DNA of 32,000 bases from Cupriavidus necator (GTDB lineage Bacteria > Pseudomonadota > Gammaproteobacteria > Burkholderiales > Burkholderiaceae): contig NZ_CP066018.1 of the NCBI RefSeq assembly GCF_016127575.1, forward strand, positions 3,360,001 to 3,392,000, in the 5' to 3' direction. The translations under genes were made by a program, and so were the position numbers. Positions within the stretch are counted from its first letter, which is position 1. Each line of letters begins with the position of its first letter. Shown piece after piece: positions 2,357 to 31,963 of the stretch. Below the pieces are notes generated by a model. The model was given only the letters and a program-made list of their open reading frames with translations. It had not been told where the DNA came from and made no database searches.

Positions 2357-2711
2357 AATCGGGTTCTTCGGTGACTATCGCCGGCCAGCGGAACAGGTTG
2401 GCGGTAGAACCCCAGGGCCGGATTGAAGCCCTCCCGTTCAGATGCCGCTGCGGCCGGGGTCAAGCGCGAGGATATTGAGCGTGATCGGTCAAGCCCCCAA
2501 GGCGCGTGCAAAGATCTCTGACTACCTCTCAAAGCGGTATCTGGATATCTTCCAGGCGTAGTCCAGCACGTCGCGGGTCATCACGGCATAGGGCGTCCCG
2601 CGGCGCTACCCTGTCGGGGACGCATGTCACGCAAAACACCTCTGCGAGCGGCTTGCCGTTGACTTCGAGGGGGTCCTGGGCGTTTGCCACCGATGACAGC
2701 TTCAGGCCACC

Positions 2712-4499
2712 CTAAGCAGGTTCCCATGTCTGGCCCAGTGACCGGACGCACTCATCCACGCTCAGTTCATGCAGTGACTCGCGCGGCAGCGTTTCGCTGG
2801 CCGCGCGTGTCAGGACAGCCAGCACGGGCGGCTTAAGCCGCACCAGCAGCAGGCGCTGGCCTTTGGCGGCCACCTCGGACGCGAAAGTATGCAGCGCCTC
2901 GATCGTCGAGCCATCGATGTCCGGCGTCTCCTCCATGCTGAAAACAAGCGTATGGAGCCCCGGCCCGGCTGCCTCGTGCAGGTGTCGCGCCCTGGCCAGC
3001 ATGCGTTCCGCATTGGCGAAGAACATCGGCGCTTCCGGCCGAACGATCAGCACGCCCGACAGAGTCCGGGCTTCAGGGTGAGCCGCGATGTCAACGTAGT
3101 CGTGGCTAGAGCCAAGGCGCCCCAATTCGCTGACTCTTGGTTCGGAGAAGCTACGCAGTGTCAGCATCAGGCTGATCCCGATTGCCACCAGCAGTCCGTC
3201 GAGCACGCCAAGCAGGACCACGGCGACACATGCGGCAACCACCAGCAGCCGGTCGCGGCGCCATGTCCAGTAGGGCCTGAATGCATCGAGACGCAACGTA
3301 TGGCTCACGGCATGTATCACGATGGCCGCGAGCACGGGCTCGGGCGTGCGTGCAAGCTGCGGCAGCAGCGCGGCAACAATCAGCGCGATGACTGCTGCGG
3401 CGCACCAACCCGCCAGGCGAGACTGTGCTCCGGCTGCTTCATTTGCAGACGTGGCGGAATAGCCCGCCCCGACTGCCATGCCATGTAGCAAACCGGAGCC
3501 AATATTGGCCAGACCTAGTGCGACCAGGTCGCGGTTGGGTGAGGTCACATCACCGTACTTGAGCGCAAAGCTGCGGATCGAGCCGTACGATTCCGCATAC
3601 AGGATCAGCACCAGCGCGAAGGCGAGCTCGCCAACGCGCAACCACTGTATGCGCTGCAGGTCGGGCAGGCCGATGGTGACATTTGCCAGATCAATCGTGC
3701 CCACTTCGGCAATGCCGTAGTGCGACAGATCGGTGGCATAGGCTGCTGTGATGCCCAGCACGATCACCACCAGCGGTCCCGGCACCCGCCGCAAGCGCGC
3801 CAGCGCGAACAACAAAGCCAGCGCCGCCAGGCACGCGGCGAGCGCATTGAGGTTCCAACCCGCCGATTCGTGCAGGAACTGGTAAGTGAAACGTGGCAGG
3901 TCGCTGTGCGTCGGGTGGATCCCGGCGATGCTCGAAATTTGCCTGAGAATGATAATGACCGCTAGTCCGAATGTGAAGCCGCGCAGCACCGGCTTGGCAA
4001 TGAAGTCGGTAATGCCGCCCAAACGCGCTATGCCCGCCAGCACCAGGAAGACACCGGCCAGCGTCACGAACCCGGCGGCGAGCGCCAGGCGCAGCGCGGC
4101 ATCGGCACCGCTAGTCGACAGCGTGGCCGCGGCCAGCACCGCAGCAGAAGATGAGGTGGCCGACACCACCGCGAAGCGGCTCGTGCCCACAATGCCGTAT
4201 ATCACCAGCCCGACTAGCAGGCCGACCAAGCCAGCTTGCGCAGGCAGATTGGCGATGCCGGCGTATGCAACGGCTTCCGGCAAAAGCAGACCGGCAATAG
4301 AGCAGCCGGCGATCACATCTCGCCCGAGCCGTTGGCTTCGTGTCAGCGCCACGTCATTGGCCCTGCCGGTATCCGGCGGGGTGGACGAACCGGGGGCATC
4401 AGACGCAGGACACATAGTCGATGTAGTTCGGGCGATCGGCGGTCCGCTTATTCTGCCACTGATAGATGCCATCGAAATGACTTCGGCGTCGTTGCACAC
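2712..4499 (-). CDS. SulP-family anion transporter with C-terminal STAS domain
   Basis: Polytopic hydrophobic core with the SulP-like N-terminal motif (LLLPEAVAYAGIANLP). The C-terminal STAS-like region includes VLIVRPEAPMFFANAE...IDGSTIEAL. The start is uncertain: GTG 4499, ATG 4472 or ATG 4415. Confidence 0.85.
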   Translation of the reverse strand: MCNDAEVISMASISGRISGPPIARTTSTMCPASDAPGSSTPPDTGRANDVALTRSQRLGRDVIAGCSIAGLLLPEAVAYAGIANLPAQAGLVGLLVGLVIYGIVGTSRFAVVSATSSSAAVLAAATLSTSGADAALRLALAAGFVTLAGVFLVLAGIARLGGITDFIAKPVLRGFTFGLAVIIILRQISSIAGIHPTHSDLPRFTYQFLHESAGWNLNALAACLAALALLFALARLRRVPGPLVVIVLGITAAYATDLSHYGIAEVGTIDLANVTIGLPDLQRIQWLRVGELAFALVLILYAESYGSIRSFALKYGDVTSPNRDLVALGLANIGSGLLHGMAVGAGYSATSANEAAGAQSRLAGWCAAAVIALIVAALLPQLARTPEPVLAAIVIHAVSHTLRLDAFRPYWTWRRDRLLVVAACVAVVLLGVLDGLLVAIGISLMLTLRSFSEPRVSELGRLGSSHDYVDIAAHPEARTLSGVLIVRPEAPMFFANAERMLARARHLHEAAGPGLHTLVFSMEETPDIDGSTIEALHTFASEVAAKGQRLLLVRLKPPVLAVLTRAASETLPRESLHELSVDECVRSLGQTWEPA

Positions 4500-4644
4500 G
4501 GAGCGCCCTTATGGCGACCCCGCCCCAACGATGCTCGCCAGCCAATCGAACTTGGTCCTTCCGTCCACAGAAGTTGTGAGTGCAAGCATCACGTCTGAAG
4601 ACTTGAACGTCCCATCCCTTTGGCTTGCTGACGAGGAACGCCAC

Positions 4645-5047
4645 ATGCATTCAATCCTATTCCACCAGGCAATGGCACTGACCTTGGCGGCGACCGCCAT
4701 GGCCCTGTGCCATGCGCAGGAATTGCCGCTCCAGGCACCGCGCAGATCCGCGAATCGGCCGGGATCCTTTATGTTTCCGGTGGCGTCGGCACGGAAGACG
4801 TGGCGCGCATGAAAAAAACTGGCGCCGCGCTTTAATGCCAGAATCCGCTTCCAGGACAATGCCACTGGGCGTGGATGCCCGCGCCCGGCGTCCGGGTCGT
4901 CAACCGCAACCACACGTGGCCCGCCTGCGCTTCGTCGAGGCGGTTCTTCTCTGCTTCGTTGCTCATGGCGATTCTCATCTCGCAAGGTGGCGGGCGCCAG
5001 GTGCGTACCGGGCAGCCATCTTATGGGACTCTTGCTTGCATACGTGA
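4645..5047 (+). pseudogene. decayed paralog of the CarboxypepD_reg-like secreted proteins at 6156-6722 and 25927-26406
   Basis: ATG 4645 has GAGGAA 6 nt upstream and an intact signal peptide (MHSILFHQAMALTLAATAMALCHAQ). Homology to the intact paralogs then hops between frames. SAGILYVSGGVGTEDVARMKK is in frame 0, LAPRFNARIRFQDNATGRG in frame 1, PGVRVVNRNH in frame 0 and APGAYRAAILWD in frame 2. The 3' part is cut off where the low-GC DoxX block starts (~5021). Confidence 0.5.
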
Positions 5048-5437
5048 CGATTCAATGGCGAATACCACCAGCATGCCGCCCAGGATTGAGACATTCTTCA
5101 GAATGTGGTTAAGCTGATTCATGAAGTCTGCGGGATCGGCGCGCCAGAAGCCATGGAAGATGATGGTGGTGGGTACCAGGAACAGTGCAAGAAGCAGCGC
5201 GCCCAAGCGTGCGCTCCAGCCCGAGATCAAAGTCAGTCCACCACCAATTTCAACTGCGATGGTTAGCACCAGCAGCAAATCCGGGCTCGGCAGTTCAGCG
5301 CTGGCAATCCACGCAGAATAGGCCGCGAAGCTGCCAATCTTCAGGAGTCCGGAAAATAAAAAAAGAGAGCCGAGAAGCGCACGACCGACAGAGTACGTTC
5401 GTGAAACGACCGTGGGCGCGAGTGACATAGTGGTCAT
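5021..5437 (-). CDS. DoxX-family membrane protein
   Basis: Four hydrophobic helices with DoxX-like text (LLGSLFLFSGLLK ... EIGGGLTLISGW ... LLLALFLVPTTIIFHGFW). ATG 5437 is preceded by GGAGA. Codon usage is atypical, with low GC3. Confidence 0.8.
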   Translation of the reverse strand: MTTMSLAPTVVSRTYSVGRALLGSLFLFSGLLKIGSFAAYSAWIASAELPSPDLLLVLTIAVEIGGGLTLISGWSARLGALLLALFLVPTTIIFHGFWRADPADFMNQLNHILKNVSILGGMLVVFAIESSRMQARVP

Positions 5438-5485
5438 GACCATCTCCAAAACGAAGAGCGGTTGCAGCCAAGAGCCAGTCCCCAA

Positions 5486-5972
5486 TTAGGAGTCCCGCTC
5501 CTTTTCCTTGCCGGTGCCGTCATCCCAAGGGCGGACCACCTTGGCCGAGCGTGGCGAGCCGCCCGAGATAATCCGTGCAGCGGCCGCTGACGGGCGAAGG
5601 ATCGAACGGACGATTTTCCGGTAGCGGTGCGCCACCTTCATGAGTGCCGGGAGCTTGATCCGCTTCACGGTGCGGACGTTCAGTGCTCCCTGCACGCCGG
5701 ATGGCCGCGATCAGCATGTGGCTCCGCGCCGCCAGCAAAGTCTCCTCAAATCGCGCCATTGCCTCTGACAGCAGATTCAACTCGACCTGGCTCTTGGCGT
5801 CGTCCGCCTTGCAAGCATCAATCTCGGTGTAGATGCGCTTGCCGAGCTCACGCACGAGAACAGGATCGAGCTGTCCTTGAGATGCTGCGTGACTCAGGTG
5901 AAACAGCAGGGTGATCAATCCGTTCGGAGTGGAACGGGGTGGCGAAGCTGTGCTCATTTGTTGCCCCAACAT
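5486..5972 (-). pseudogene. hypothetical helical protein with an apparent frame discontinuity near 5690-5700
   Basis: ATG 5972 has GGAGA 5 nt upstream. The N-terminal ~90 codons read well in the frame of ORF 5520..5993. Downstream of ~5695, high GC3 moves to the frame of ORF 5486..5695 (basic tail ...VKRIKLPALMKVAHRYRKIV...). The original frame becomes low-GC3, low-complexity text. Confidence 0.35.
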
Positions 5973-6155
5973 TGCAGTCTCCACATTTGGCAAGCCACTG
6001 GCTATAGGATCTGGAAAATCCCGGAGTTTTGGCTACATCAAAGAAAAGATTGACAGGCCATTGGCCCGCAACGATGCGTGCCGGCTTCGTATGCGTTTGG
6101 CTGTCACGACACGTGCGCCGCCTTGCAGCCGGTGCCCTTCGCAATGAGGCCTTTC

Positions 6156-6722
6156 TTATGTGGGAGTCGGGTACTGGGGCGTTCGTGTCCGTGCGTGCAG
6201 CCAGTCTCGTTCCAGGTGGATCAGGTTGAAAAGAAATGTGAGGTCCATCGGCTCGGCTTCGGCCGTAATCCATTGCTCGTGATCGACGTCTTGATAAATC
6301 AGCGTCAGGTAATAGCGGCCGTGAGGCAGTTTGAGGTAGACCAGGGGACCGTCCGAGACCAGCCGTAGCAGGCGGTTGCCCTGTTCGTTGACCAGGATCA
6401 GTGTGACGCCAGAAACGGGGTTGCCTTCTGAAGGATCCTGGAAGCTGAGCCGCACATTGAATTGGCCGGCGATAGCCTGCATTTGCCGCAAGCCTTCGCG
6501 CCCCATCCCGCCCGAGACATACCGGACGCCAGCGGATTGGTGGATTTCCGGCGGCGTTGGATGCGTTGCGAGGATCTGCGCGTGGAGAAGCGGTGCGGTA
6601 CCAAGGAGCAGCGCGGCGGCAGCTGCACGCTCAACCTTGCTGGCGCGCATTGCAAGTGATCGATGGTGGCTAACGGGAGCCTGGAGGTTTTCCTCGTGTC
6701 CACGCTGCAGCTTCGCGGTCAT
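6156..6722 (-). CDS. secreted CarboxypepD_reg-like (beta-sandwich) domain protein, paralog family member 1
   Basis: ATG 6722 is preceded by AAAGGAGGA and a hydrophobic signal-like segment ends in LLHAQ. The conserved YVSGG block and a G-x-V-x-L ... G-x-Y-x-L pattern are typical of carboxypeptidase regulatory-like domains. It is clearly paralogous to 25927-26406. Confidence 0.7.
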   Translation of the reverse strand: MTAKLQRGHEENLQAPVSHHRSLAMRASKVERAAAAALLLGTAPLLHAQILATHPTPPEIHQSAGVRYVSGGMGREGLRQMQAIAGQFNVRLSFQDPSEGNPVSGVTLILVNEQGNRLLRLVSDGPLVYLKLPHGRYYLTLIYQDVDHEQWITAEAEPMDLTFLFNLIHLERDWLHARTRTPQYPTPT

Positions 6723-7069
6723 GACAATCCTCCTTTGCGGCGCGCAAAATATCGCCCGTCTATTTTGAAGCGTAGGTCGCATGCGCACTGTCCCATTGAT
6801 GCATCGCAAACGAGATACCAAATACATTCAGCCGCCTTCCCCTGGGAGCAGTACTCGGTGGCGAACTCGCGGATCGCGCCGTCAGAGGTTTGTCCTGAGC
6901 CCATGTAACCGGCGATCGTGGCGGCATTGCCGGAACGGGCAATGCGCACGGACGAGTGCGTGTGCGCACACCCGGCCGTATTGCCTGAGCATGCGGTATC
7001 CCAGTTCTCGATGACCGCCGACAGCTTCATGTCGCGCACTGGCGTATATAGAAGTGGTGTCCCCTCCAT
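6719..7069 (-). CDS. hypothetical Cys-containing small protein (8 Cys, no signal peptide)
   Basis: This is the only ORF with coding-like GC3 between the ATPase and the downstream gene. Its TGA overlaps the ATG of 6156-6722 (ATGA), which suggests translational coupling. The start is uncertain (7069 or ATG 7030). Confidence 0.45.
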   Translation of the reverse strand: MEGTPLLYTPVRDMKLSAVIENWDTACSGNTAGCAHTHSSVRIARSGNAATIAGYMGSGQTSDGAIREFATEYCSQGKAAECIWYLVCDASMGQCACDLRFKIDGRYFARRKGGLS

Positions 7070-7158
7070 GCCCTATTGGCTTCTGTGGGAAGAGCGGCGC
7101 CTGTGCTCCGTGGCCAACGGGGTGATGGAATTCTGAGTTGGCGAGCACCGGTCTCCCG

Positions 7159-9873
7159 CTACAGCTTGCACCGCCGGCTCCACCATTTGTCCAGCTCCAC
7201 TGCAATCGTCAATGTGAGCGCGAGCGACAACAGTCCAGCCCACGTCGTAGCCGACACAGGTGTGAGACCGAGCGTGTCGCTTAGCCCGGGTATGTACATG
7301 GCAGCGATATGGAGTAACTGGGCAGCCAGTACGCTGACCACCAGCATCGGATTGGCGAAGACCCCCTGTCGGAATACGGAGTGGCGCTCTGAACGGCTAC
7401 TAAACGTCTGCAAGTTCTCAAACAGCACAAACAGCAGCAGCAATTGGTTGCGTGCCTCGTTTAGGGGATAGCCGCGGTCGAGCAGCCAGTAGAAAGTTGC
7501 AAATCCCCCTACGCCCATGACAAGAGTCGAATAGCAGATGCGGCGGATCATTACGCGGTCAAAGATCGGCTCCCGGGGCTTGCGCGCCGGATATGACAGT
7601 TCGTCGCCTTCCGCATGCTCGGTAGCCAGAGCCACATCCTGGATGCCATTGGTCACGAGGTTGAGCCACAGCAGCTGCACCGGCAGCAATGGCATTGGCA
7701 GGCCCAGGGGAATCGCCAGCAGAAACAGAACCATTTCGGCCGCGCCCGTGGAAACCACCATGAAGATGACTTTGCGAATGTTCGCGTACGCCACCCTGCC
7801 TTCATTTATGCCGTTGACGATGGACGCAAAGTTGTCATCGGTGAGGACTATGTCTGCGCTTTCCTTCGCTACTTCAGTTCCCTTTCGGCCCATGGCCACA
7901 CCGACGTGTGCGTGCTTGAGCGCAGGAGCGTCGTTGACGCCGTCGCCGGTGACCGCCACGAAATGGCCGGTTCTTGCCAGCGACAGGACAATGGACAGCT
8001 TCTGATCCGGACTGACGCGGGCGTAGATGCGCGCACGGCGGGTCAGTTGGTCGAGTCCGTGCGGCCCCTTGCTCTCGGCCTGGCGCACCTGCTCGCCCGT
8101 CACGACCTGGTCCGTGGTAAAGCGCAGCCCCGCCTGCGCGCCAATTGCGCTGGCTGTCAACGGATCGTCGCCAGTCACCATCGCCACGTCGATGCCGGCG
8201 CTGTAGCAGCGTCGGATAGCGTCCGGGACCTCCGGGCGAACCGGATCCTTCATGCCTGCCATTCCCAGAAAGGTCAGGTTGACCAGGTGCCCGTGTCCGT
8301 AGGACCCGTCCGGCTCCGCATCAATCGTGCCTTCTGCGAACGCCAGCACGCGTAGTCCTTGCGCGGCCAGCGCTGCCTTTTCCCGAAGCAGTCCTTCGCG
8401 CCGGATCGGCACGGCATGGCCGCGAACGTCCGCCTGGTCGCACATGGCAATCAGAGTCTCGGGCGCTCCCTTGACGAACACGCGGATCGTCTCTTCGTGC
8501 CGGTGGAACGAGGCCGCGTACCGCAGGTCTGGCTCATACGGGATACGGGCCACCAAGGGGTACCGCTGTCGGATCTCATTGGCTACGGTGCCCCCCTTGT
8601 GCGCTGCGGCCAGCAGCGCCACGTCCACGCTGTCCCCGGTGCCAGTCCAGCCATCACGCTCCCTGGATAGTTGGGCCTCGTTTGGCAGCGCCGCGGCCCT
8701 TAGCAGGGCCGCTACCCGCGTTCTCGCGTCATGGTCGGTGGTGCCGGCGGCGCGGATCGTGCAGTTGTCCAGATCGTGTCCGACGTCGCAGCAAAACGCC
8801 GTGCCGTCGGGAAGCCGGATATCGGTGACGACAAGCTCGTTCATGGTCAGGGTGCCGGTCTTGTCGGTGGCGATCATCGTGCAGGATCCAAGCGACTCCA
8901 CGGCGGGCATTTTGCGCACGATCACATGGGCCTTCGCCATCCGCCGCATGCTGATCGCCAGCGCCACCGAAATGGCGACGGGCAGTCCTTCGGGGATCGC
9001 GCTTACCGCCAGTCCGACCGACATCATGAACAGTTCGCGCAATGCCATGCCGCGCAGCATACCCACCAACACCAGCAACGCCACAGCCACGCCTACCGCC
9101 ACCGCGATCAGTCGGGAAAAACGCTGGAGCCTGAGAATCAAAGGTGGCTGCGAGATGGATTCGCGGCCCAGTTCCCGCGCAATCCGGCCAATTTGCGTGG
9201 CAGCGCCAGTTGCCACGACGATGCCGTGGCCCCTGCCGCGGAGCACCACCGTGCCGGCGAAGGTCAGGCACTGGCGGGCGCTCGCTGGGGCGTTGCTGGC
9301 ATCACATGCTGAGAGCTTGCGCACCGGCAGCGATTCGCCAGTCAGCAGGGATTCATCGCACTGCAGGTCAATGGCGGAGGTCAGTTCCAGGTCGGCCGGC
9401 ACTCGGTTGCCGGCTTCCAGCACCACCAGGTCGCCCGGTACCAGCGTACTTGCATCGATCTCCTGCTGGATGCCGTCCCGGATCACCGTGGCACGGGGCT
9501 GCTCCATCCTGCGCAGCGCCACGGCCGCCTTGTCGGCCGTATGCTCCTGTGCGGTGCCGATGACGCCGTTAATCAGCAGTACTGCCCCGATGAACAGTGC
9601 ATCCTTCAGGTCACCCAACGCGAGCGACACCGCTGCCGCGGCCAGGAGAATGTAAATAAGCGGACTGAGGAACTGGCGCAGAAACACCGCGGCCACCGAC
9701 CTAGGGGCCGCCTGAGGCAGCACATTGCGGCCCACCTCGGCCAGCCGCGCATTAGCCTGCGCGGTGGTCAGGCCGGGTGGGACATGTCCCGGATCGACGC
9801 GATCCCGGGTGCCGGAATGTTCTTCGTGAGATCGGGGGCGATCCGTTTGCAACGCGCTGGAGCGATTTTGCAT
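7159..9873 (-). CDS. P2-type cation-transporting P-type ATPase (Ca2+/Mg2+-ATPase-like)
   Basis: Motifs DKTGTLT, PEGLP, MVTGD and TGDGVNDAPAL are present. There is an N-terminal Cation_ATPase_N-like segment (GLTTAQANARLAEVGRNVLPQ) and 10 TM-type hydrophobic blocks. ATG 9873 is preferred over ATG 9987 because the longer form would start inside the promoter/FNR-box region. Confidence 0.92.
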   Translation of the reverse strand: MQNRSSALQTDRPRSHEEHSGTRDRVDPGHVPPGLTTAQANARLAEVGRNVLPQAAPRSVAAVFLRQFLSPLIYILLAAAAVSLALGDLKDALFIGAVLLINGVIGTAQEHTADKAAVALRRMEQPRATVIRDGIQQEIDASTLVPGDLVVLEAGNRVPADLELTSAIDLQCDESLLTGESLPVRKLSACDASNAPASARQCLTFAGTVVLRGRGHGIVVATGAATQIGRIARELGRESISQPPLILRLQRFSRLIAVAVGVAVALLVLVGMLRGMALRELFMMSVGLAVSAIPEGLPVAISVALAISMRRMAKAHVIVRKMPAVESLGSCTMIATDKTGTLTMNELVVTDIRLPDGTAFCCDVGHDLDNCTIRAAGTTDHDARTRVAALLRAAALPNEAQLSRERDGWTGTGDSVDVALLAAAHKGGTVANEIRQRYPLVARIPYEPDLRYAASFHRHEETIRVFVKGAPETLIAMCDQADVRGHAVPIRREGLLREKAALAAQGLRVLAFAEGTIDAEPDGSYGHGHLVNLTFLGMAGMKDPVRPEVPDAIRRCYSAGIDVAMVTGDDPLTASAIGAQAGLRFTTDQVVTGEQVRQAESKGPHGLDQLTRRARIYARVSPDQKLSIVLSLARTGHFVAVTGDGVNDAPALKHAHVGVAMGRKGTEVAKESADIVLTDDNFASIVNGINEGRVAYANIRKVIFMVVSTGAAEMVLFLLAIPLGLPMPLLPVQLLWLNLVTNGIQDVALATEHAEGDELSYPARKPREPIFDRVMIRRICYSTLVMGVGGFATFYWLLDRGYPLNEARNQLLLLFVLFENLQTFSSRSERHSVFRQGVFANPMLVVSVLAAQLLHIAAMYIPGLSDTLGLTPVSATTWAGLLSLALTLTIAVELDKWWSRRCKL

Positions 9874-9989
9874 GAGGTTTCCCAAGGTATGCCGGGCGCG
9901 GAGCCACGCGTGCACACCCTGGGCGTACGCCACGTGCGGCGGGCGGGTCCGGACACTGTTCAAGCGTAGGTACTCGCGTTTCCGCATGA

Positions 9990-10003
9990 TTGATCCGGAT
10001 CAA
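9990..10003. promoter_or_regulatory. perfect FNR/Anr box TTGATCCGGATCAA in a divergent promoter region
   Basis: 10/10 match to TTGAT-N4-ATCAA. A -10-like TAGACT (10025-10030) lies on the + side. A TACGCT (complement of 9963-9968) lies on the - side. Both sit about 21-22 nt from the box edge, which is class II geometry. Confidence 0.75.
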
Positions 10004-10097
10004 CCACCACCCGGTTCCCCCTCCTAGACTGGCTGTATCGGCCAGCGGCACCCGTGGCGGGGCCAACGGCCTTGCGCAAGCGTCAAAGGACACCAGC

Positions 10098-18793: not shown

Positions 18794-18821
18794 CCCGGTC
18801 TCCTTTTTTGCGCAACGTTGC

Positions 18822-22155: not shown

Positions 22156-22169
22156 TTGATGCGGGTCAG
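22156..22169 (+). promoter_or_regulatory. weaker FNR-like site TTGATGCGGGTCAG
   Basis: 8/10 match to the consensus. Its centre is 54 bp upstream of the stronger box at 22210-22223. Confidence 0.35.
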
Positions 22170-22204
22170 CGGGCGGGCGGTCGGCCGGCCAAGGGGACTC
22201 TGGG

Positions 22205-22278
22205 CTTCGTTGACAGCCATCAACACGCATGCGCTTGCGACCGCTACTTTGGAAATAGCCCATAGCCGAAGCCGAGGT
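22205..22278 (+). repeat. promoter-plus-leader module, copy A (FNR box, -10, leader, SD-like GAGG)
   Basis: Aligns by eye with 25333-25405. 41/48 are identical from the box through the -10, and 16/18 in the segment ending GCCGAGGT. There is one indel in between. Confidence 0.7.
22210..22223 (+). promoter_or_regulatory. FNR box TTGACAGCCATCAA
   Basis: 9/10 match. A -10-like TACTTT lies at 22245-22250, 21 nt after the box. It is 217 nt upstream of the PNPOx-like gene. Confidence 0.65.
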
Positions 22279-24126: not shown

Positions 24127-25242
24127 ATGTGGATCGGCGTGCCTAAAGAAGTCAAGGACAACGAGTACCGGGTTGGCCTGGCGCCTGCCTGCGTGCGCGA
24201 ACTTGTCAGCCGCGGTCACCAGGTCATGGTCCAGGCCGGGGCCGGGGCCGCGCTTGGCCTTTCCGACGCGCAATACGAAGCGGCTGGCGCGAAGCTGGCT
24301 GCCGATGCGAAGGCCGTGTACGACCGGGCCCAGATGATTGTCAAGGTCAAGGAGCCACAACCACGCGAACTGGCGCTGCTCAGGCCCGGGCAGATCCTCT
24401 ATGCATACCTGCACCTGGCCGCGGACCGTGAGCTGACTGCCGCGCTGCTGCAATCCGGCGCGGTCTGCATCGCCTATGAGACGGTTACGGGGCCTGACGG
24501 TGGTCTGCCGCTGCTGGCCCCCATGAGCGAGGTCGCCGGCCGCATGTCAGTCCAGGTGGCGGCAGCCTACCTCGAGAAGCCGAACGGCGGCATGGGACTG
24601 CTGCTCGGCGGCGTCCCGGGCGTCGCGCCGGCACATGTCGTGGTGATCGGCGCCGGCGTGGTGGGCGCCAATGCTGTCCAGATCGCGGTTGGCATGGGGG
24701 CGCGCGTGACGGTATTGGACAAGAATATCGAACGACTGCGGCATCTCGGCTCCGTGTACGGCAATCGAGTCGTGACGGTCTACTCCAGCGCTGACAGTAT
24801 CGAGCGCGCGTTGCTCTCGGCCGATGCGGTCATCGGCGCGGTGCTGGTGCCTGGCGCCGAGGCGCCCAGGCTGGTCACGCGTGCGATGGTCGCGCGCATG
24901 AAAGCGGGTTCGGTGCTGGTGGATGTGGCGATAGACCAGGGAGGCTGCGCCGAGACATCGCGCCCGACCAGCCATACGGATCCGACCTATGTGGTGGACG
25001 GCGTGCTGCACTACTGCGTGACCAACATGCCGGCAGCGGTGGCGAGGACCTCCACCTTTGCCCTGAACAACTCCACGATCGGTCATGCGATGGCCCTTGC
25101 CGACAAGGGATGGTCCCGCGCGCTCTCAGACGACCCCTACCTGCGGGCCGGGCTGAATATCTGTCGCGGGAGTGTGACTTATGCGGCCGTCGCAAGCGCC
25201 CATGGCTACGCCCATGTACCCGCCGAGCAGGTGCTGACCTGA
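24127..25242 (+). CDS. ald: alanine dehydrogenase
   Basis: 371 aa. N-terminus [20 protein letters not shown], Rossmann motif [13 protein letters not shown], and C-terminal text typical of L-alanine dehydrogenase. Confidence 0.95.
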
Positions 25243-25332: not shown

Positions 25333-25405
25333 CTTGGTTGACTGGCATCAACCCGCATGTCCTTGCGACCGCTAATTTGGGATGAACCACAGCCAAAGCC
25401 GAGGT
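25333..25405 (+). repeat. promoter-plus-leader module, copy B
   Basis: See 22205-22278. In this copy the module ends 4 nt before the USP ATG at 25410. Confidence 0.7.
25338..25351 (+). promoter_or_regulatory. FNR box TTGACTGGCATCAA
   Basis: 9/10 match. A -10-like TAATTT lies at 25373-25378. It is 59 nt upstream of the USP start. Confidence 0.7.
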
Positions 25406-25409
25406 CGCC

Positions 25410-25874
25410 ATGTACCGCCGCATTCTCCTAGCCCTCGATGGCAGCCGTTCATCCTTGAATGCCCTGGAGCAGGCCGTGTCGATGGCGCTGACCACCGACG
25501 CCGAGGTCAGCGCCATGTTCGTCGTCGACGACAGCGACCTGTTCTTCGAGGTCAGCCCGGGTGACCGGCACTGGCTGATGGCCGACATCATTGCCTATGG
25601 CAAGCAGGTGCTGGCTCGTGCCGGCGAGCGCTTCAGCGCCGCCGGCGTGCGCTGGAGCAGCAGGTTGGCCGAGACGCCCGGCACCCCTGCGAAGATTGCC
25701 GAGGCGATCATCGCGGAAGCGGACCACTGGAGCGCGGACCTGATCGTCATGGGCACACACGGCCATCGCGGCGTGCGGCGCATGGTGCTGGGCTCGGTCT
25801 CGGAGCACGTGGTCAGCAAGACGGTTCGCCCCGTGCTGCTCGTTCGGCAGCAGTCGCGCGGCGATACGCCCTGA
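25410..25874 (+). CDS. universal stress protein (single USP domain)
   Basis: MYRRILLALDGS...ADLIVMGTHGHRGVRRMVLGSVSEHVVSKTVRPVLLVR, including the ATP-binding-type G-x2-G-x9-G-S motif. Confidence 0.92.
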   Translation: MYRRILLALDGSRSSLNALEQAVSMALTTDAEVSAMFVVDDSDLFFEVSPGDRHWLMADIIAYGKQVLARAGERFSAAGVRWSSRLAETPGTPAKIAEAIIAEADHWSADLIVMGTHGHRGVRRMVLGSVSEHVVSKTVRPVLLVRQQSRGDTP

Positions 25875-25926
25875 CCGTTCGGTTCCGGCCTGCGAAAACC
25901 CCAATAATTCTTCCGGAGTGACGCAA

Positions 25927-26406
25927 ATGCAGGTTTCAAGAAGCCTAGGCCTCGGCCTATCGTCGCTGGCGATTGCCGTTGCGGCGGCGGGTTGCGCCAC
26001 TCGCGCCGCGCCCGCTGGCGTGCAGATCATGGAGCAGCACGGCGTTTCCTACGTATCGGGTGGAGACGATGAGGCGGGCATGCAAAGCATGCTGGCCATC
26101 GCCGCGCGTTTCAATGTACGGCTGACGATGGTGGATGCCGGGCGCGGGAAGCCGCTGGGCGGTGCCACGGTGGTCGTGGCCAGCCAGGAGGGCCGCCCCG
26201 TGCTGCACACTACGGCTAGCGGGCCGCTGTTCTATATGCGACTCAGGCCGGGTGCCTATCGGCTCGCTGTCGGCTACCAGGGGCGGGACCAGATGCGCGA
26301 CATCGTCGTCGCTGGCGAGCCGCTCGAGGTGACGTTCCGGCTGCCGGTCAATACGCTCGAGGACGACTGGCTGCTCTGCGCCACGACACCCTGTCCGCGT
26401 CGCTGA
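25927..26406 (+). CDS. CarboxypepD_reg-like domain lipoprotein, paralog family member 2
   Basis: Lipobox-like AAAGC after a hydrophobic signal. It has the YVSGG block and the beta-sandwich pattern GGATVVVASQEGRPV...LRPGAYRLAVGYQG. ATG 25927 has GGAG 9 nt upstream; GTG 25918 is an alternative start. Confidence 0.72.
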   Translation: MQVSRSLGLGLSSLAIAVAAAGCATRAAPAGVQIMEQHGVSYVSGGDDEAGMQSMLAIAARFNVRLTMVDAGRGKPLGGATVVVASQEGRPVLHTTASGPLFYMRLRPGAYRLAVGYQGRDQMRDIVVAGEPLEVTFRLPVNTLEDDWLLCATTPCPRR

Positions 26407-26652: not shown

Positions 26653-26666
26653 TTGACACGTATCAA
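26653..26666 (+). promoter_or_regulatory. FNR box TTGACACGTATCAA
   Basis: 9/10 match. A -10-like TACGCT lies at 26688-26693. It is 85 nt upstream of the USP start. Confidence 0.7.
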
Positions 26667-26750
26667 CAGCAGTTGCGCCGGTTGCCCTACGCTGCATTTA
26701 ACCAGTCCAGACCCGAGTCGCCACAGGCTCCCATCGCCGGAGAAACCGCT

Positions 26751-27203
26751 ATGTACCAGCGCATCCTTGTCGCCATGGACGGCGGCGCCGCATCGGAACT
26801 TGCCCTGGAACAGGCCATGATCATCGCGCGCGCCGCCAACGCCGAAGTGGAGGTGGTCCATGTGGTCGATGACCGCAGCCCGTTTCTGGATGCCAGCAAT
26901 CTGGATCCGGTGAGATTGATAGAGGACCTCACGACGGCGGGGCAAAGCGTTCTCGCTGCCGCCTCCGGCCGGCTTGCCGCAGCGGGTATTCGCCACGTAA
27001 CGCGGCTGCTCGGTAAGCCTATGGTCGAGGGCGACGTTGCTGCCACGATCGCTGCCGAAGCCAATGGCTGGGGCGCTGATCTGGTTGTGATGGGTACGCA
27101 CGGCCGCCGGGGAGTGCGGCGACTCGTCATGGGCAGCGTCGCGCGAAGCGTGATCAACCTGGCCGTCGCGCCCGTCCTGCTTCTCCGCGCCGAGGAAGCG
27201 TAA
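26751..27203 (+). CDS. universal stress protein (single USP domain)
   Basis: MYQRILVAMDGG...ADLVVMGTHGRRGVRRLVMGSVARSVINLAVAPVLLLR. GGAGA lies 7 nt upstream. Confidence 0.92.
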   Translation: MYQRILVAMDGGAASELALEQAMIIARAANAEVEVVHVVDDRSPFLDASNLDPVRLIEDLTTAGQSVLAAASGRLAAAGIRHVTRLLGKPMVEGDVAATIAAEANGWGADLVVMGTHGRRGVRRLVMGSVARSVINLAVAPVLLLRAEEA

Positions 27204-27243
27204 GCAGGCGAACAGATTTTGGAGGGCATTACGCCAGAGAGCT

Positions 27244-27522
27244 ATGCATACGATCGACTTTTCCGGCGAGACGCCGGATTACTGCCCGACCGGGCCAAGC
27301 CTGCGGTGTGCCGTGAAGGTGGATGGCACACCGGCGACCTATGAGATCACTGCCGAGGCGCTTGAGGATCATTTCGGCGCACGCTCGTACCGCAGTGAAG
27401 ATTTGCTGCCGGCATTCATGAGCAACCGCCAGGACATTGAACGCGTCGCGGGAGCGCTGTTCGAGATGACAGGTGCGCGGCACATCGTGCTGCACAGCGG
27501 CCATTTTCGCTTCGCGGTGTGA
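27244..27522 (+). CDS. small conserved hypothetical protein (DUF1488-like by recollection)
   Basis: The 92-aa ORF has good GC3 and the text ...YEITAEALEDHFGA.... The SD is weak. The family assignment comes from memory of DUF1488-type sequences and is not verified. Confidence 0.5.
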   Translation: MHTIDFSGETPDYCPTGPSLRCAVKVDGTPATYEITAEALEDHFGARSYRSEDLLPAFMSNRQDIERVAGALFEMTGARHIVLHSGHFRFAV

Positions 27523-27585: not shown

Positions 27586-27804
27586 ATGAAGAATCGCTTG
27601 CAGTCATGCACACCGGAGAAACGGCCAGGATGGCGCAGGCTTGCCGCCTGCGCGTTGGTGCCGCTATGCACAGCGTGTACCGCCGTACCGGACCTGCTGC
27701 GGCCGCCGAAGCCACGCACCGCCGCGCTGGCGGCAGGCAGCCTGGGCCAACTCGTACCTGGTGCCAGCGGTATTGCCTGTAGCGCGGACACGAAGACGGC
27801 TTGA
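27586..27804 (+). CDS. small (72 aa) putative exported/lipoprotein-like protein
   Basis: Perfect AAGGAG lies 6 nt upstream of the ATG. The N-terminus is basic, followed by the hydrophobic segment LAACALVPLCTAC. Low complexity afterwards lowers confidence. Confidence 0.45.
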   Translation: MKNRLQSCTPEKRPGWRRLAACALVPLCTACTAVPDLLRPPKPRTAALAAGSLGQLVPGASGIACSADTKTA

Positions 27805-27814
27805 TGCACGACAA
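27801..27814 (+). promoter_or_regulatory. FNR-like box TTGATGCACGACAA
   Basis: 8/10 match. A -10-like TATAGA lies at 27834-27839. It is 69 nt upstream of the tandem USP start and overlaps the stop codon of the small ORF. Confidence 0.5.
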
Positions 27815-27882
27815 ATCCGGGGCGGGGTGGCGATATAGATTCAAGAAAAGCTCCGTCCGGGGCTGCCTGATGGAGTCAATCC

Positions 27883-28722
27883 ATGGACTACGCAACGATC
27901 CTGGTTCATCTCGATGCCGGCCGCCGCGTGTACGACCGGCTGCACCTCGCGACCCGGCTGGCGCTGGAGTTTCATTCCACGCTGGTTGGCCTGCTAGCCG
28001 TCGGCAAGCCGGATCCCACCGCCGTGCGCTACCTGGTGGACGGTGACCGCAATCTTGCCTCTTACACCGAATGGCGGCATCAGGTCGGCGAGCGGGCCCG
28101 TCACGCCCTGATGGGCGCAACGGACGAGGTAACCGTCATTACGGAATGGCGGGCGCCGGACTGGGCCACGGCGGCAACGGTCCAGGCAGAGGCGCATCGG
28201 GCGGATCTTGTCATCCTCGGACAGCACGATCCCACTGATGAAGCCGCCTACGCCGAGCCCGGCTTTGTTGAATCCATTGTGCTGGGATGCGGGCGGCCGG
28301 TGCTGGTGGTTCCGTATGCGGGCCGGTTCCCGAGCGTTGGCAAGAACATCATGGTGGCGTGGAACGGCAGCCGCGAGTCGGCGCGGGCCATCCGCGATGC
28401 GCTTCCGCTCCTGCAGCGCGCGGGCACTGTGGAGGTGGTCTCGTGGACACCGTCTGGGGTTCTGAAGGGGACATGGGTTTCGCCGCCTCAGCATGCCGTG
28501 GACTGGCTGGGTCGGCATGGCGTGGCGGTGCAGCTTTGCACGTTTGGAGCGGAAGACGGCGAAGACGTCGGCCAGATGTTACTCTCACACGCCGCGGACC
28601 GAAATGCTGACCTGATCGTCATGGGGGCCTACGGGCACAGCCGGGTGCACGAGCTGGTCCTTGGCGGTGTCACCCGCACGTTGCTTGAGTCGATGACAGT
28701 GCCGGTCCTGATGTCGCACTGA
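27883..28722 (+). CDS. tandem-domain universal stress protein
   Basis: MDYATILVHLDAG ... GAYGHSRVHELVLGGVTRTLLESMTVPVLMSH. It is a paralog of 11516-12346. Confidence 0.9.
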   Translation: MDYATILVHLDAGRRVYDRLHLATRLALEFHSTLVGLLAVGKPDPTAVRYLVDGDRNLASYTEWRHQVGERARHALMGATDEVTVITEWRAPDWATAATVQAEAHRADLVILGQHDPTDEAAYAEPGFVESIVLGCGRPVLVVPYAGRFPSVGKNIMVAWNGSRESARAIRDALPLLQRAGTVEVVSWTPSGVLKGTWVSPPQHAVDWLGRHGVAVQLCTFGAEDGEDVGQMLLSHAADRNADLIVMGAYGHSRVHELVLGGVTRTLLESMTVPVLMSH

Positions 28723-28960: not shown

Positions 28961-30736
28961 CTAGGGTTCCAGCACGTAGGTACCAGGAGCGTCCGCGAGC
29001 CCCTGGCCCGGCGCCTGTCGCGTGCAGCGCGCTGTCGAGTGGGCCACTAGCCAGTCATGCCACGCCGGCCACCAGGAACCGTCGCGGTACACAGCTACGT
29101 TGAGGAATTGCTCCGGGCTCAGGTAGGGCGCGGCGGGCAATCGCGTATGCACATGGTAGCGCCGGCCCGGGTGGCCCGGCTCGGACACGATGCCTGCGTT
29201 GTGGCCGCCCGAGGTCAGCAAGAAGGTCAGTTCAGCCTTGGTCAGTAAGTGCAGCTTGTACACGGAGCGCCAGGGCGAGACGTGGTCGTGTTCGGTGCCA
29301 ACCACGAAAAGCGGGAGGTCGAGGTCCGACAGGGCGACGGGCTGTCCGCCCACGCACAGCTTGCCGGTGGCCAGCTCATTGCCCAGGAACAGCTTGTGCA
29401 GGCATTCCGAATGCAGGCGGTAAGGCAAGCGGGTGGTGTCGCGGTTCCAGGAGACCAGATCGTTGGCGCGCAAACGTTGGCCGAGCAAATACTCGCTCAT
29501 TACGCGCGACCAGATCAGGTCCTGGGCGTTCAGCATCTGAAAGGCAGACTTCATCTGAGGCCCGTCCAGATATCCCTGACTCCACATGAGGGCGTCGAGC
29601 GTGGCGAGCGAGCTCTTGTCGATGAACAGGCCCAGTTCGCCCGGATCATGGAAATCGGTCTCTGAGGCAAAGAGCGTCATGCTGGCCAGTGGCCCGCCGG
29701 CGGCGTCGCGGGCGAGCATGGCGGCACCCGTGGCAAGCAGGGTGCCGCCCAGGCAATACCCGGCGGCGTGGACGTGCGCGCCGTCGCAGCGCGCGTGCAC
29801 GGTGTTGAGCGCGGTCAGAAGCCCGGCCTCCAGATAGGTGTCAAGCCCGAAGTCGCGGGCCGAGGCGTCCGGGTTCTTCCATGAAATCATGAACACGGTA
29901 TGGCCGCTCTCGACCAGGTAGCGCACCAGCGAATCCTCGGGCTTCAGGTCGAGGATGTAGTACCGCATGATCCAGGACGGCACGATCAGCACCGGCTCGC
30001 GCCAGACTGTATTGGCGCCAAGGGCGGGCGCATACTCGATCAGTTCAATTAGTGCGTTGCGGAACACCACCTTGCCAGGCGTGCGCGCCACGTCGCGCCC
30101 GGGTAGAAATTCCAGCGCGGGGCGCCCCGCAGGCAGCCCAGGCACCTTTGACAACAGCTCACTGGCGTCCTGCAGCCAGTGATGGGCGCCTTGCAGGAAG
30201 TTGGCGCCGAAGGTGCTCGAGGCGGTCCTGGCAATGGTCGGATTCATCCACCAAACATTGCCGGGCGCGAGCAGGTCAAGCCATTGCCGGGCGCAGAAGG
30301 CGACGATGTGCTGGTGATGACGCGACAGGCCGTCAATATCCTGCGTCAGCGACTCCCAGAAGGCTTCGTTGCGCATGAACGCATCGCGCCAGCAGCGATA
30401 AGGCCAGTCCTGCCAGCCGGCATCGGCAAAGCGCTGATCGCTGAGGTCAACGGACGGCGGCTCGGCCGCGGTCGGCAACAGCCGTGGCCAGTCCTCGATG
30501 CTGTGCTGCAGCCACACCTGCCATGCCTGCACAATCTTTGCCGGGGAGATGCCGAGCTGCAGCGCCCAGTCGAGTCCGGCCAGACTTGCCGAGATCACCG
30601 ACAGGCCCCCGGTGGCACGGGCCAGGCCGGCGCGGATCTGCTTGTCCATCCAGACTTGCGCCGGTATGGCGGCCTGCGGCGCGCATTCCGGCATGGCCGA
30701 CAGGCTGGGCGGTGACGTCCTGTCGTCGATCCTCAT
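28961..30736 (-). CDS. phaC: class I poly(3-hydroxyalkanoate) synthase
   Basis: 591 aa with the lipase-box-like GYCLGG carrying the catalytic Cys, and downstream GTEHDHVSPW and GGHNAG segments. ATG 30736 overlaps the phaB TGA (ATGA). The longer 707-aa ORF is rejected. Confidence 0.92.
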   Translation of the reverse strand: MRIDDRTSPPSLSAMPECAPQAAIPAQVWMDKQIRAGLARATGGLSVISASLAGLDWALQLGISPAKIVQAWQVWLQHSIEDWPRLLPTAAEPPSVDLSDQRFADAGWQDWPYRCWRDAFMRNEAFWESLTQDIDGLSRHHQHIVAFCARQWLDLLAPGNVWWMNPTIARTASSTFGANFLQGAHHWLQDASELLSKVPGLPAGRPALEFLPGRDVARTPGKVVFRNALIELIEYAPALGANTVWREPVLIVPSWIMRYYILDLKPEDSLVRYLVESGHTVFMISWKNPDASARDFGLDTYLEAGLLTALNTVHARCDGAHVHAAGYCLGGTLLATGAAMLARDAAGGPLASMTLFASETDFHDPGELGLFIDKSSLATLDALMWSQGYLDGPQMKSAFQMLNAQDLIWSRVMSEYLLGQRLRANDLVSWNRDTTRLPYRLHSECLHKLFLGNELATGKLCVGGQPVALSDLDLPLFVVGTEHDHVSPWRSVYKLHLLTKAELTFLLTSGGHNAGIVSEPGHPGRRYHVHTRLPAAPYLSPEQFLNVAVYRDGSWWPAWHDWLVAHSTARCTRQAPGQGLADAPGTYVLEP

Positions 30737-31479
30737 TGCAGGTGTTGCCCGCCGTTGATGGCAAAATTCGCGCCAGTGACGAAGGCCCCGTCGTCGCTGC
30801 ACAGGTAAGAGATCAGCGCCGCGACCTCGGCCGGCTTGCCTAGCCGGCCGACCGGGATAGTCGGCAACACGTCCCGCTCGAGGATCTCGGCGGGCATGTC
30901 CGTCACCATGTGCGTATCCAGGTAGCCCGGCGAAACGGTGTTGACGGTGATGCCTTTGCGTGCGAGTTCCAGCGCCAGCGCCTTGGTGAAGCCATGTACC
31001 CCCGCCTTGGCGGCGGCATAGTTGGTCTGGCCAAAGGCGCCCCGCGAGGCATTGACCGAAGAAATATTGACGATCCGGCCCCAACCGCGCGCCAACATCG
31101 GCTCAACCAGCGGCCGCGTCATATGAAAGAGCGAGTCGAGGTCCGTGCGCAGCACGAAGTCCCAGTCAGCCTTATCCATCTTGCGCAGGGTCCGGTCGCG
31201 CGTGACCCCGGCATTGTTGATCAGAATATCGACGTCGCCGAGCTCGCTGCGCACTTGCGACACGCAGCGCTGGCAGGACGCGAAGTCCGTCACGTCGACC
31301 GGGAACGCCGTGAATTCGCGGCCGGCGGAGCGTTGCGTGCCGAGCCACTGGGCCACGTGGTCATTGTGTACGGAGTGCGTCACCACGACGCGCGCGCCGT
31401 CGGCCAGCAGCCGCACGGCAATCGCTTCGCCGAGGCCGCCCATGCCTCCCGTTACCAGGGCAATGCGTTGTCCGGCCAT
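30733..31479 (-). CDS. phaB: acetoacetyl-CoA reductase (SDR family)
   Basis: 248 aa. It has ALVTGGMGGLGEAI (TGxxxGxG), NNAG and YAAAK (YxxxK), with strong resemblance to PhaB. Confidence 0.92.
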   Translation of the reverse strand: MAGQRIALVTGGMGGLGEAIAVRLLADGARVVVTHSVHNDHVAQWLGTQRSAGREFTAFPVDVTDFASCQRCVSQVRSELGDVDILINNAGVTRDRTLRKMDKADWDFVLRTDLDSLFHMTRPLVEPMLARGWGRIVNISSVNASRGAFGQTNYAAAKAGVHGFTKALALELARKGITVNTVSPGYLDTHMVTDMPAEILERDVLPTIPVGRLGKPAEVAALISYLCSDDGAFVTGANFAINGGQHLQ

Positions 31480-31483
31480 CTCG

Positions 31484-31963
31484 TCAGCTCCGTGACGCGC
31501 CGGCGGGGCGCGCCGGGGCCTTCGCGCCTGGGGTAGGGACGGCCATCAGGCGGCCGACGTTGTCGAACATTTCGCGCGCCGATTCCGCAAAGGGCGCGTA
31601 GCCGCCTCCCTCCACCATGACCCTTTGCTGGTAGTCCTGCCAGGCTTCGGTCGACTCGCGCAGGTGCTCCATGAAGGCCGAGGCCATTTCTATGTAAAGA
31701 CCGCCAATGTCGCGTGCATGTGCGGCGTTGCGCTCGACCTGCGCGGCCAGAATCTGAGCGGGCAGGCCATGGAAGGCGTTCCAGTCTGGCGCATCGTTGA
31801 CGCGGGCGAGCGCCTGCCGGGTGCCTTTTATGTCCTCGTCCAGGGCCTTGAGGCGGAGCCTGAGCAACATCTGGCGCGATTCTTCCCAGCGCAGCCAAAT
31901 GCGCAGGGCGGACTGCTCGGCGCAGCGCGCGAGTTCGAAGGCGGGATCGGTCTGGTCTGGCAT
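31484..31963 (-). CDS. probable phasin-like PHA-granule-associated protein
   Basis: 159-aa helical, Ala/Glu/Gln-rich protein directly upstream of phaB-phaC, 4 nt from the phaB start, with AGGAG 7 nt upstream. The family call rests on context and composition only. Coordinates are from the ORF track; the printed sequence lacks one base near 31921. Confidence 0.5.
   Translation of the reverse strand: MPDQTDPAFELARCAEQSALRIWLRWEESRQMLLRLRLKALDEDIKGTRQALARVNDAPDWNAFHGLPAQILAAQVERNAAHARDIGGLYIEMASAFMEHLRESTEAWQDYQQRVMVEGGGYAPFAESAREMFDNVGRLMAVPTPGAKAPARPAGASRS

Follow-up and report, generated by a model that had tools for sequence, protein, structure and literature searches.

How is a cluster of genes for stress and storage functions, located on chromosome 1 of Cupriavidus necator, controlled, and by which regulator? 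The question is raised by a 32,000-nt stretch of that chromosome (hereafter the window, to whose positions all coordinates refer; G+C 65%), which also encodes an FNR-type protein. A preliminary description, made from the letters of the sequence, had read it as an about 30 kb block of dormancy-type stress genes forming one regulon, wired to its own FNR through six intergenic FNR boxes and resembling both Burkholderia cenocepacia's lxa (low-oxygen-activated) locus and the mycobacterial DosR regulon. Window positions 9611-30405 are 100% identical to chromosome 1 of C. necator H16 (CP039287.1, ~2.17-2.19 Mb) and likewise to a second C. necator assembly, and 99.6-99.8% identical to further strains of the species; by this measure the source is H16 or a near-identical strain. 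We regard the locus as probably a low-oxygen stress and storage island running from ~2.7 kb in the window to past its right end. The sequence supports FNR-type class II activation at low oxygen well as its mechanism.

The gene map was built from Pfam and NCBIfam matches together with gene calls on identical public contigs. The family matches bore out the gene set given in the preliminary description: four USP genes (two of them tandem), Hsp20, a CBS pair, two BON proteins, a P-type ATPase with Cation_ATPase_N/C domains, a NarL/GerE response regulator, an MBL/beta-CASP/RMMBL hydrolase and, for storage and metabolism, PhaC, an SDR protein (PhaB) and alanine dehydrogenase. An Rfam scan of the whole window matched no family. 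The genes fall into 12 predicted transcription units, and an FNR box precedes seven of them.

FNR boxes and promoter geometry

Mismatches to TTGAT-N4-ATCAA were counted over the whole window, with 100 shuffles as background. Five matches had at most one mismatch (at 9990, 19315, 22210, 25338 and 26653); the shuffles averaged 0.29 and never exceeded 2, 0 of the 100 reaching five. All five lie in the 14.6% of the window that is intergenic on the gene map (P = 6.6e-5). Together with a weaker match at 27801 (8/10) these are the six boxes of the preliminary description, which proved correctly placed and intergenic, with distances of 58-216 nt to the start codons rather than the 59-217 nt it had claimed. 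Its remark that coding sequence holds no comparable match is true at up to one mismatch but not at two, where five coding matches occur (5655, 6273, 6388, 6796 and 19231). The box promoters are the following.

9990-10003, both directions: perfect FNR box TTGATCCGGATCAA; -10 hexamers TAGACT at 10025-10030 (plus strand, MBL-USP unit) and TACGCT at 9963-9968 (minus strand, ATPase operon)
19315-19328, minus strand: hsp20 FNR box (9/10); -10 hexamer CAAAGT at 19288-19293; entire block invariant in five species
22156-22250, plus strand: PNPOx promoter; distal site TTGATGCGGGTCAG at 22156-22169, proximal box TTGACAGCCATCAA at 22210-22223, -10 hexamer TACTTT at 22245-22250
25338-25378, plus strand: FNR box TTGACTGGCATCAA and -10 hexamer TAATTT, predicted to drive USP154 and a CarboxypepD_reg-like gene
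26653-26693, plus strand: FNR box TTGACACGTATCAA and -10 hexamer TACGCT, predicted to drive USP150 and a DUF1488 gene
27801-27841, plus strand: weak FNR box TTGATGCACGACAA and -10 hexamer TAGATT, predicted to drive a tandem USP gene (USP279)

Read towards the downstream gene, the 14-mer box and the -10 hexamer are separated by exactly 21 nt in all seven promoter directions, a fixed spacer that sharpens the class II geometry proposed earlier and makes TAGATT the hexamer of USP279. The hexamer has the form TAnnnT in six of the seven directions; since this form has a frequency of 0.0023 per intergenic position, the probability of six or more in seven is ~1e-15. The exception is hsp20, whose minus-strand CAAAGT has TGC just before it. 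The preliminary description had seen no clear -10 hexamer there, because the promoter reads on the other strand; one is present at 21 nt, although it is weak and departs from TAnnnT. With 21 nt between it and TAnnnT, the site has its centre near -41.5, where class II FNR promoters have theirs, and the outcome of a search for sigma-70 -35/-10 pairs, which called none at the box promoters, is what is expected of activator-dependent promoters.

The locus has orthologues in four other Cupriavidus genomes, at 78-94% DNA identity. Blocks made of box and -10 hexamer are conserved amid diverged spacers in Cupriavidus sp. amp6, C. lacunae, C. pinatubonensis and strain RAL3, and in the intergenic alignments of the Cupriavidus orthologues the flanks upstream of these blocks cannot be aligned. 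Such conservation against diverged flanks, the -10 hexamer in exact register (P ~1e-15) and the shuffles, none of which reached five matches, already refute the idea that the boxes are chance matches of an AT-rich palindrome in AT-richer intergenic DNA, even though intergenic DNA is indeed AT-richer than coding DNA and matches with two mismatches are near background (12 against 4.9 expected at up to two mismatches, ~7 against 4.6 at exactly two).

The lack of -35 elements, the exact spacing and the conserved box also speak against a general stress or stationary-phase regulon (e.g. RpoS- or stringent-response-dependent) in which the boxes would be incidental or minor modulators. We consider this very unlikely, although in other bacteria many kinds of stress induce USP, Hsp20 and BON proteins, which speaks for it. 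Some genes co-regulated with lxa respond in stationary phase too (PMC3721108), whereas the USPs of the B. cenocepacia lxa locus are induced almost exclusively by low oxygen.

The distal PNPOx site at 22156 (TTGAT-N4-GTCA) is also conserved, and lies 54 bp upstream of the proximal box, near -95. Tandem FNR sites are known at some E. coli FNR promoters, where expression can be dampened by the upstream one. The PNPOx and USP154 promoters, each with the first part of its leader (22205-22275 and 25333-25405), are ~80% identical and represent paralogous copies of one cassette; in the PNPOx copy an extra leader of ~180 nt follows, partly absent in orthologues. Two other candidate elements were discarded. 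The 183-nt PNPOx leader with its terminator-like hairpin was considered as an FNR-activated small RNA, and was dropped because it folds no better than shuffled sequence (z = +0.83) and because ~100 nt of it are absent from orthologues. A conserved TTGGCAAG near hsp20 was rejected as a sigma-54 element on sequence inspection, the spacing being wrong.

The island-encoded FNR and the promoter module upstream of it

Between the MBL-USP unit and the thymidine-phosphorylase-family gene, the window carries the following regulatory genes and sites.

12576-12603, plus strand: sigma-70-like promoter TTGCCT-16-TATAGT of a kinase/regulator operon, conserved and retained in the H16 lineage
12632-12769, plus strand: sensor kinase remnant, 45 codons in frame, MPLKASSSAPQASS fused to LVQSSPDDGFRLVVRFPREQG...
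12744-13391, plus strand: NarL/GerE-type response regulator, intact, with D8, D9, D53, T81 and K103 present
13431-13829, minus strand: degenerate single-domain receiver, 132 aa; Pfam Response_reg E = 0.0017; Ser at the phospho-Asp position
13906-13923, minus strand: palindrome TGTCAG-N6-CTGACA upstream of the receiver gene, with a third half-site at 13883-13891 and -10 hexamer GATACT at 13836-13841
19420-19437, plus strand: palindrome CGTCAG-N6-CTGACA of the fnr promoter module, with a third half-site (CTGACA) at 19453-19458 and -10 hexamer AATACT at 19502-19507
19611-20405, plus strand: fnr, 264 aa; Pfam cNMP_binding, HTH_Crp_2 and Crp

The claim of a locally encoded FNR with four Fe-S cysteines and an E--SR helix was upheld by alignment. 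The protein matches the Aliivibrio FNR structure (5cvr) at 3e-52, its C41, C44, C50 and C143 align with the four cluster cysteines, and its recognition helix ETVSRTL aligns with ETISRLL, so that E--SR is kept and fits the box. On the NCBIfam Fnr model (NF008365) it scores 224.6 bits, slightly below the cut-off of 228; close homologues are named Fnr by NCBI. The alignments thus support a bona fide FNR-type regulator. The fnr promoter itself lacks a class II box; what is conserved there is another palindrome.

This palindrome belongs to a module shared with the receiver gene, made up of the 18-bp palindrome, a 13-nt interval, a third half-site and a (G/A)ATACT -10 hexamer ~67 nt after the palindrome. 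In four Cupriavidus loci the palindrome is kept at both sites, and the module is also present in loci L022 (at 9386), L021 (9483), L025 (19403), L020 (9482) and L026 (26397). Both half-sites are altered together in Burkholderia and Paraburkholderia (TGTAGG-N6-CCTACA), the signature of a dimeric factor. Homologues of the receiver are found directly 5' of fnr, at 32-38% identity, in Paraburkholderia fungorum, the C. basilensis-like contig, B. alba and B. cenocepacia. The receiver genes have merely 7-9 nt from -10 hexamer to ATG, the same in homologues, which suggests leaderless receiver mRNAs.

The sensor kinase is intact in four Cupriavidus orthologues (447 aa in L011, with transmembrane, PAS, HisKA_3 and HATPase regions), where it overlaps the start of the response regulator. 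The window and every H16-like contig hold the remnant only, in which the first 14 codons are joined in frame to the last ~24. The response regulator of the window shares 98% identity with its counterpart in L011, which has an intact kinase, and 79% with that of the C. basilensis-like locus (L022). In the latter the palindrome lies between a PAS-HisKA_3 kinase/NarL-type regulator operon and a receiver-fnr operon, and the recognition helix of the response regulator varies by genus (KMRLM versus KTRIL). The palindrome is probably bound by the adjacent NarL-type response regulator, and its placement, the 79% regulator identity and the genus-specific helix lead us to propose a two-tier cascade, in which kinase and regulator would act on fnr, and FNR on the box promoters. 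Extended to the Burkholderiaceae as a whole, this becomes a tentative proposal that we hold with less than even confidence: a conserved, undescribed promoter module would drive the island fnr and be read by the PAS-kinase/NarL-type system, the pseudo-receiver being a possible feedback element, and kinase loss in H16 and its close relatives would uncouple the switch from its sensor. If this is true, the loss might explain the poor expression of genes such as phaC2 in H16.

Proposed mechanism and the identity of the activator

Taking E. coli FNR and P. aeruginosa Anr as the paradigm, we would expect a drop in oxygen to let an FNR-type regulator retain its [4Fe-4S] cluster, form a dimer, occupy the boxes and recruit RNA polymerase, most island units starting from activator-dependent promoters without a -35 element. 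The units to respond would be the ATPase operon together with the MBL-USP unit, which is read divergently from that same perfect palindrome; the hsp20-CBS-BON-BON-Pat operon; PNPOx-TPM; the three USP units; and, beyond the window, phasin-phaB2-phaC2 along with a nitroreductase unit and a Cpn60 gene. The island fnr would stand one level up, its promoter palindrome and third half-site served by the NarL-type regulator at 12744-13391, and the outcome would be a two-tier cascade of the FixLJ-FixK type. Because the PAS kinase was lost by in-frame deletion in the H16 lineage, the upper tier there would either need cross-talk or be inactive.

Several observations weigh against this account. By match count alone, box 27801 and the distal site 22156 occur at background frequency and are unsupported, because matches with two mismatches are near background; for box 27801 the support comes instead from orthologue conservation and promoter geometry. 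The hsp20 hexamer CAAAGT is weak. Four units (ald, the response regulator, fnr and the receiver gene) have no box. In the upper tier, the response regulator reaches 80 bits on the FixJ model, whose cut-off is 255, and it is adjacency and co-variation that link it to the palindrome. Finally, paralogues of the Anr, Dnr and FixK types also read TTGAT-N4-ATCAA, and FNR homologues are numerous in Cupriavidus (55-90% identity), so the local FNR may not be the activator.

This last point leads to the likeliest alternative, namely that functional boxes are served in the main by a CRP/FNR paralogue other than the local one (the housekeeping Fnr or a nitric-oxide-responsive Dnr/NnrR-type protein of the denitrification network), with the local FNR redundant or poorly expressed and the island, instead of being a regulon of its own, forming part of a general anaerobic and denitrification response. 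We see this as a real possibility, if somewhat short of an even chance. It would agree with an fnr promoter that carries another module in place of a class II box, with a kinase cut to 45 codons in all H16-like loci, with the many homologues, and with the paralogous MBL and USP genes that lie amid nor, nrdD and nap genes on the megaplasmid pHG1. In B. cenocepacia H111, moreover, two anr paralogues are redundant for anoxic survival (PMC9104464). On the other hand, the local FNR is intact and the exact protein is common to many C. necator assemblies, its recognition helix fits the box, and the response regulator is intact and nearly identical to its counterpart in the kinase-bearing L011. The alternative is compatible with activation by the local FNR and does not exclude it; as activator of the boxes the local protein is plausible, not exclusive. 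The preliminary description had gone further on both the regulator and the regulon. Its assertion that the local FNR acts on the boxes is not borne out, given the fnr promoter, the deleted adjacent kinase and the many paralogues, and neither is its single regulon, with a box in seven of the 12 units and a degenerate one in the phasin-phaB2-phaC2 unit, the promoter of which lies just beyond the window. The storage genes of this unit are these.

28961-30736, minus strand: phaC2
30733-31479, minus strand: phaB2
31484-31963, minus strand: phasin-like gene, with its promoter just beyond the window

The PhaB/PhaC pair at 28961-31479 is phaB2/phaC2 (H16_A2002/A2003), since the window is identical to H16 chromosome 1. 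A passage in PMC12349661 reports, second-hand, that phaB2 and phaC2 of H16 are induced under oxygen limitation, and both are nearly silent in aerobic fructose culture (PMC3734047); FNR-type promoters could account for why phaC2 stays silent in aerobic cultures. Gas fermentation and polyhydroxybutyrate production, both often oxygen-limited, use C. necator H16 as their main chassis. With ~40 kb of chromosome 1, phaB2/phaC2 included, apparently behind FNR-type promoters, the island would offer a set of native low-oxygen-inducible promoters, and the deleted sensor kinase is a defined, repairable genetic lesion.

Comparison with known systems

In B. cenocepacia J2315 the lxa locus (BCAM0275a-BCAM0323) comprises 50 genes that are induced 2- to 240-fold at 6% O2. 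It has a TGA-N6-TCA motif at 17 intergenic points, related by its authors to Anr/Fnr sites, and an internal Anr-like regulator (BCAM0287), and deletion mutants survive anoxia less well (Sass et al. 2013, PMC3721108). Common to both loci are alpha-crystallin, SulP, an Anr-like regulator or FNR, a response regulator, USPs, acetoacetyl-CoA reductase with a class I polyhydroxyalkanoate (PHA) synthase, a metal-dependent RNase (MBL) and a cation ATPase. They also share an FNR-like inverted repeat found at numerous positions between genes (the window counts seven sites, and others follow to its right) and a cluster-encoded regulator with two-component genes, here fnr, the response regulator, the kinase remnant and the degenerate receiver. 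The window locus differs in having no acetate kinase/PTA, alcohol dehydrogenases, class II ribonucleotide reductase, ribokinase, lysine decarboxylase, ABC transporter or FtsH-like genes. Its BON proteins, CBS pair, Pat-like acetyltransferase, PNPOx, TPM and ald genes were not found in the table text for lxa. The locus further has a thymidine-phosphorylase-family gene, and its kinase is deleted. The hosts differ as well, C. necator being a denitrifier and B. cenocepacia an obligate aerobe. The label 'dormancy' used in the preliminary description is borrowed from obligate aerobes and does not suit C. necator, which respires nitrate (PMC11540253).

Synteny with lxa was judged against a proxy in place of J2315, the lxa-like core of the B. 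cepacia complex on a B. pyrrocinia replicon (L026). This core holds MBL, a Zn-dependent alcohol dehydrogenase, three USPs, a response regulator, fnr, a second Zn-dependent alcohol dehydrogenase, cytochrome c and SulP. Its boxes are followed by TGTAAT and TAGACT at +21, the same box-21 promoter design. Identities to the window proteins are 54% (MBL), 58% (FNR), 61% (response regulator), 41-43% (USP) and 30% (SulP), and gene order and content differ, so that the two are not syntenic. With 30-61% identity and a different order in this proxy, the locus is lxa-like in design and not an lxa orthologue; the resemblance first noticed holds for gene families and promoter type but not for gene order. 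A B. cenocepacia replicon from PLSDB (L025), tried as lxa, was found to hold a receiver-fnr-DUF1488 locus instead. A single scan of genome contigs returned only Cupriavidus and Snodgrassella loci, no B. cenocepacia protein is among the best 120 FNR homologues, and the searchable papers gave no link of 'lxa locus' with Cupriavidus and no mention of the guessed tags H16_A2004-2021. We conclude that the locus is a relative of the published lxa locus and not a new kind of system, its interpretation being largely published for another genus. The gain for basic biology is modest, an extension of the lxa/Anr-type hypoxia island from Burkholderia to Cupriavidus.

At the level of single promoters, the likeness is to P. 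aeruginosa Anr and E. coli class II FNR, with TTGAT-N4-ATCAA near -41.5 and a [4Fe-4S] sensor with four cysteines and an E--SR helix. There the regulons span the genome and centre on respiration and fermentation, whereas here the sites are concentrated in one stress and storage island with its own fnr. USP genes are given as Anr targets in P. aeruginosa in passages of PMC3721108 (citing Trunk et al. 2010) and PMC12071387.

The putative cascade resembles FixLJ-FixK of rhizobia and Caulobacter in placing a PAS kinase and a NarL/FixJ-superfamily regulator above an FNR/FixK-type gene that serves TTGAT-N4-ATCAA promoters. We take the single-domain receiver beside fnr to recall FixT of Caulobacter. 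The differences are that the response regulator, by its FixJ score (80 versus 255 bits), is no FixJ orthologue, that the kinase has HisKA_3 and is missing in H16, that the second tier is a true Fe-S FNR and not a cluster-less FixK, and that binding of the regulator to the palindrome is putative. A FixLJ to FixK to lxa cascade has been proposed for the B. cepacia complex in a 2025 review (PMC12071387).

With the DosR (DevR) regulon of M. tuberculosis the locus has in common USPs, alpha-crystallin, a CBS pair, a P-type ATPase, nitroreductases (right of the window), storage synthesis and a NarL-family regulator. The parallel between lxa and DosR was drawn explicitly by Sass et al. 2013 (PMC3721108), and the one suggested for this window stands as far as analogous content goes. 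Its promoters, however, carry FNR boxes, and a window search for the DosR box GGGACT-N2-AGTCCC at up to two mismatches gave 0 matches; judged by content, the resemblance is a functional analogy, not membership.

Other genes of the island

The remaining genes of the window, from left to right, are these.

2712-4421, minus strand: SulP/STAS anion transporter, 567 aa (gene call from locus L017); Pfam Sulfate_transp 1.8e-60 and STAS
5021-5485, minus strand: DoxX, within a lower-G+C stretch
5520-5972, minus strand: small open reading frame, 150 aa, no family
6156-6722, minus strand: small open reading frame, 188 aa, no family
6719-7069, minus strand: 116-aa open reading frame, a DUF2252 C-terminal fragment
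7159-9873, minus strand: P2-type cation ATPase, 904 aa; Pfam E1-E2_ATPase and Cation_ATPase_N/C
10098-11456, plus strand: MBL/beta-CASP/RMMBL metal-dependent RNase-like hydrolase (Pfam/NCBIfam)
11516-12346, plus strand: tandem USP, 3' of the MBL gene
14113-16809, minus strand: Pat-like 898-aa protein, fusion of an ADP-forming acyl-CoA synthetase with GNAT; final gene of the likely hsp20 operon
16865-17518 and 17613-18260, minus strand: two genes for BON x3 proteins, likely hsp20 operon
18329-18793, minus strand: CBS pair, likely hsp20 operon
18822-19244, minus strand: Hsp20, first gene of the likely hsp20 operon (14113-19244)
20432-21994, plus strand: thymidine-phosphorylase-family gene (TIGR02645, 652 bits), 3' of fnr
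22440-22892, plus strand: PNPOx-like protein
22945-23874, plus strand: TPM-domain protein
24127-25242, plus strand: alanine dehydrogenase (ald), no box upstream
25410-26406, plus strand: USP154 and the CarboxypepD_reg-like gene
26751-27522, plus strand: USP150 and DUF1488
27883-28722, plus strand: tandem USP (USP279)

The ATPase most likely starts at 9873 (904 aa) and not at 9987 (942 aa), because the minus-strand -10 hexamer at 9963-9968 places the transcription start downstream of the 9987 ATG, which sits between the FNR box and that hexamer. The H16 record gives a 904-aa product, and public annotations differ. The SulP gene is likely the last gene of the ATPase transcription unit. Within this unit, positions ~5000-8000 have a G+C of only 58-59% and hold the family-less small reading frames and the DUF2252 fragment; the stretch has the appearance of DNA that is decayed or foreign, and contains a possible half-site promoter at 6028 (reverse complement TTGATGTAGCCAAA-21-TATAGC).

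Gaps of 28-94 nt separate the genes of the likely hsp20 operon. The 898-aa fusion at its end shares the architecture of Pat/PatZ protein lysine acetyltransferases, which suggests protein acetylation as part of the response.

Extent, mobility and relatives of single genes

The extent first given, ~30 kb, is too small, as beyond the window's right end the island goes on for 10 kb or more (L023 1-9996, equivalent to window 31484 to ~41480). The genes there comprise two nitroreductases, a phosphoribosyltransferase, a BON protein, a Cpn60 paralogue, an alpha/beta hydrolase, DUF883, a DksA-type zinc finger and an APH/AAA_33 kinase. Intergenic FNR-like sites with two mismatches lie upstream of Cpn60 and of one nitroreductase, and the phasin-phaB2-phaC2 promoter reads TTGCGATACGTCAA-21-TAGACT.

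Other Cupriavidus strains carry the block at 9600-31963, with 91-93% identity, on secondary replicons ('plasmids') of 1.2-1.7 Mb, and the C. necator-like strain L017 has a different left junction at 2673, where fumarase and other genes replace guaA. The replicon locations and the altered junction indicate that the island has moved or been rearranged, and make it one that moves between chromosomes and megaplasmids.

Homologues of the MBL/beta-CASP protein are present on 219 PLSDB plasmids. On several of these, mostly from Alphaproteobacteria, the homologue lies directly 5' of a thymidine-phosphorylase-family gene, and the pairing may represent a conserved nucleotide or RNA salvage module. An Agrobacterium operon (L028) adds a P-type ATPase, a ribose-phosphate pyrophosphokinase (Prs) and a phosphoketolase-like gene; a box search upstream of this ATPase-Prs-MBL-thymidine phosphorylase operon gave one 9/10 match, not significant alone. 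The MBL copy on the pHG1 megaplasmid of H16 (L027 20001-21345), 72% identical and placed among the nor, nrdD and nap genes, adjoins a USP and a phosphoribosyltransferase gene; it matches in two pieces with no coding sequence listed, and is probably a pseudogene.

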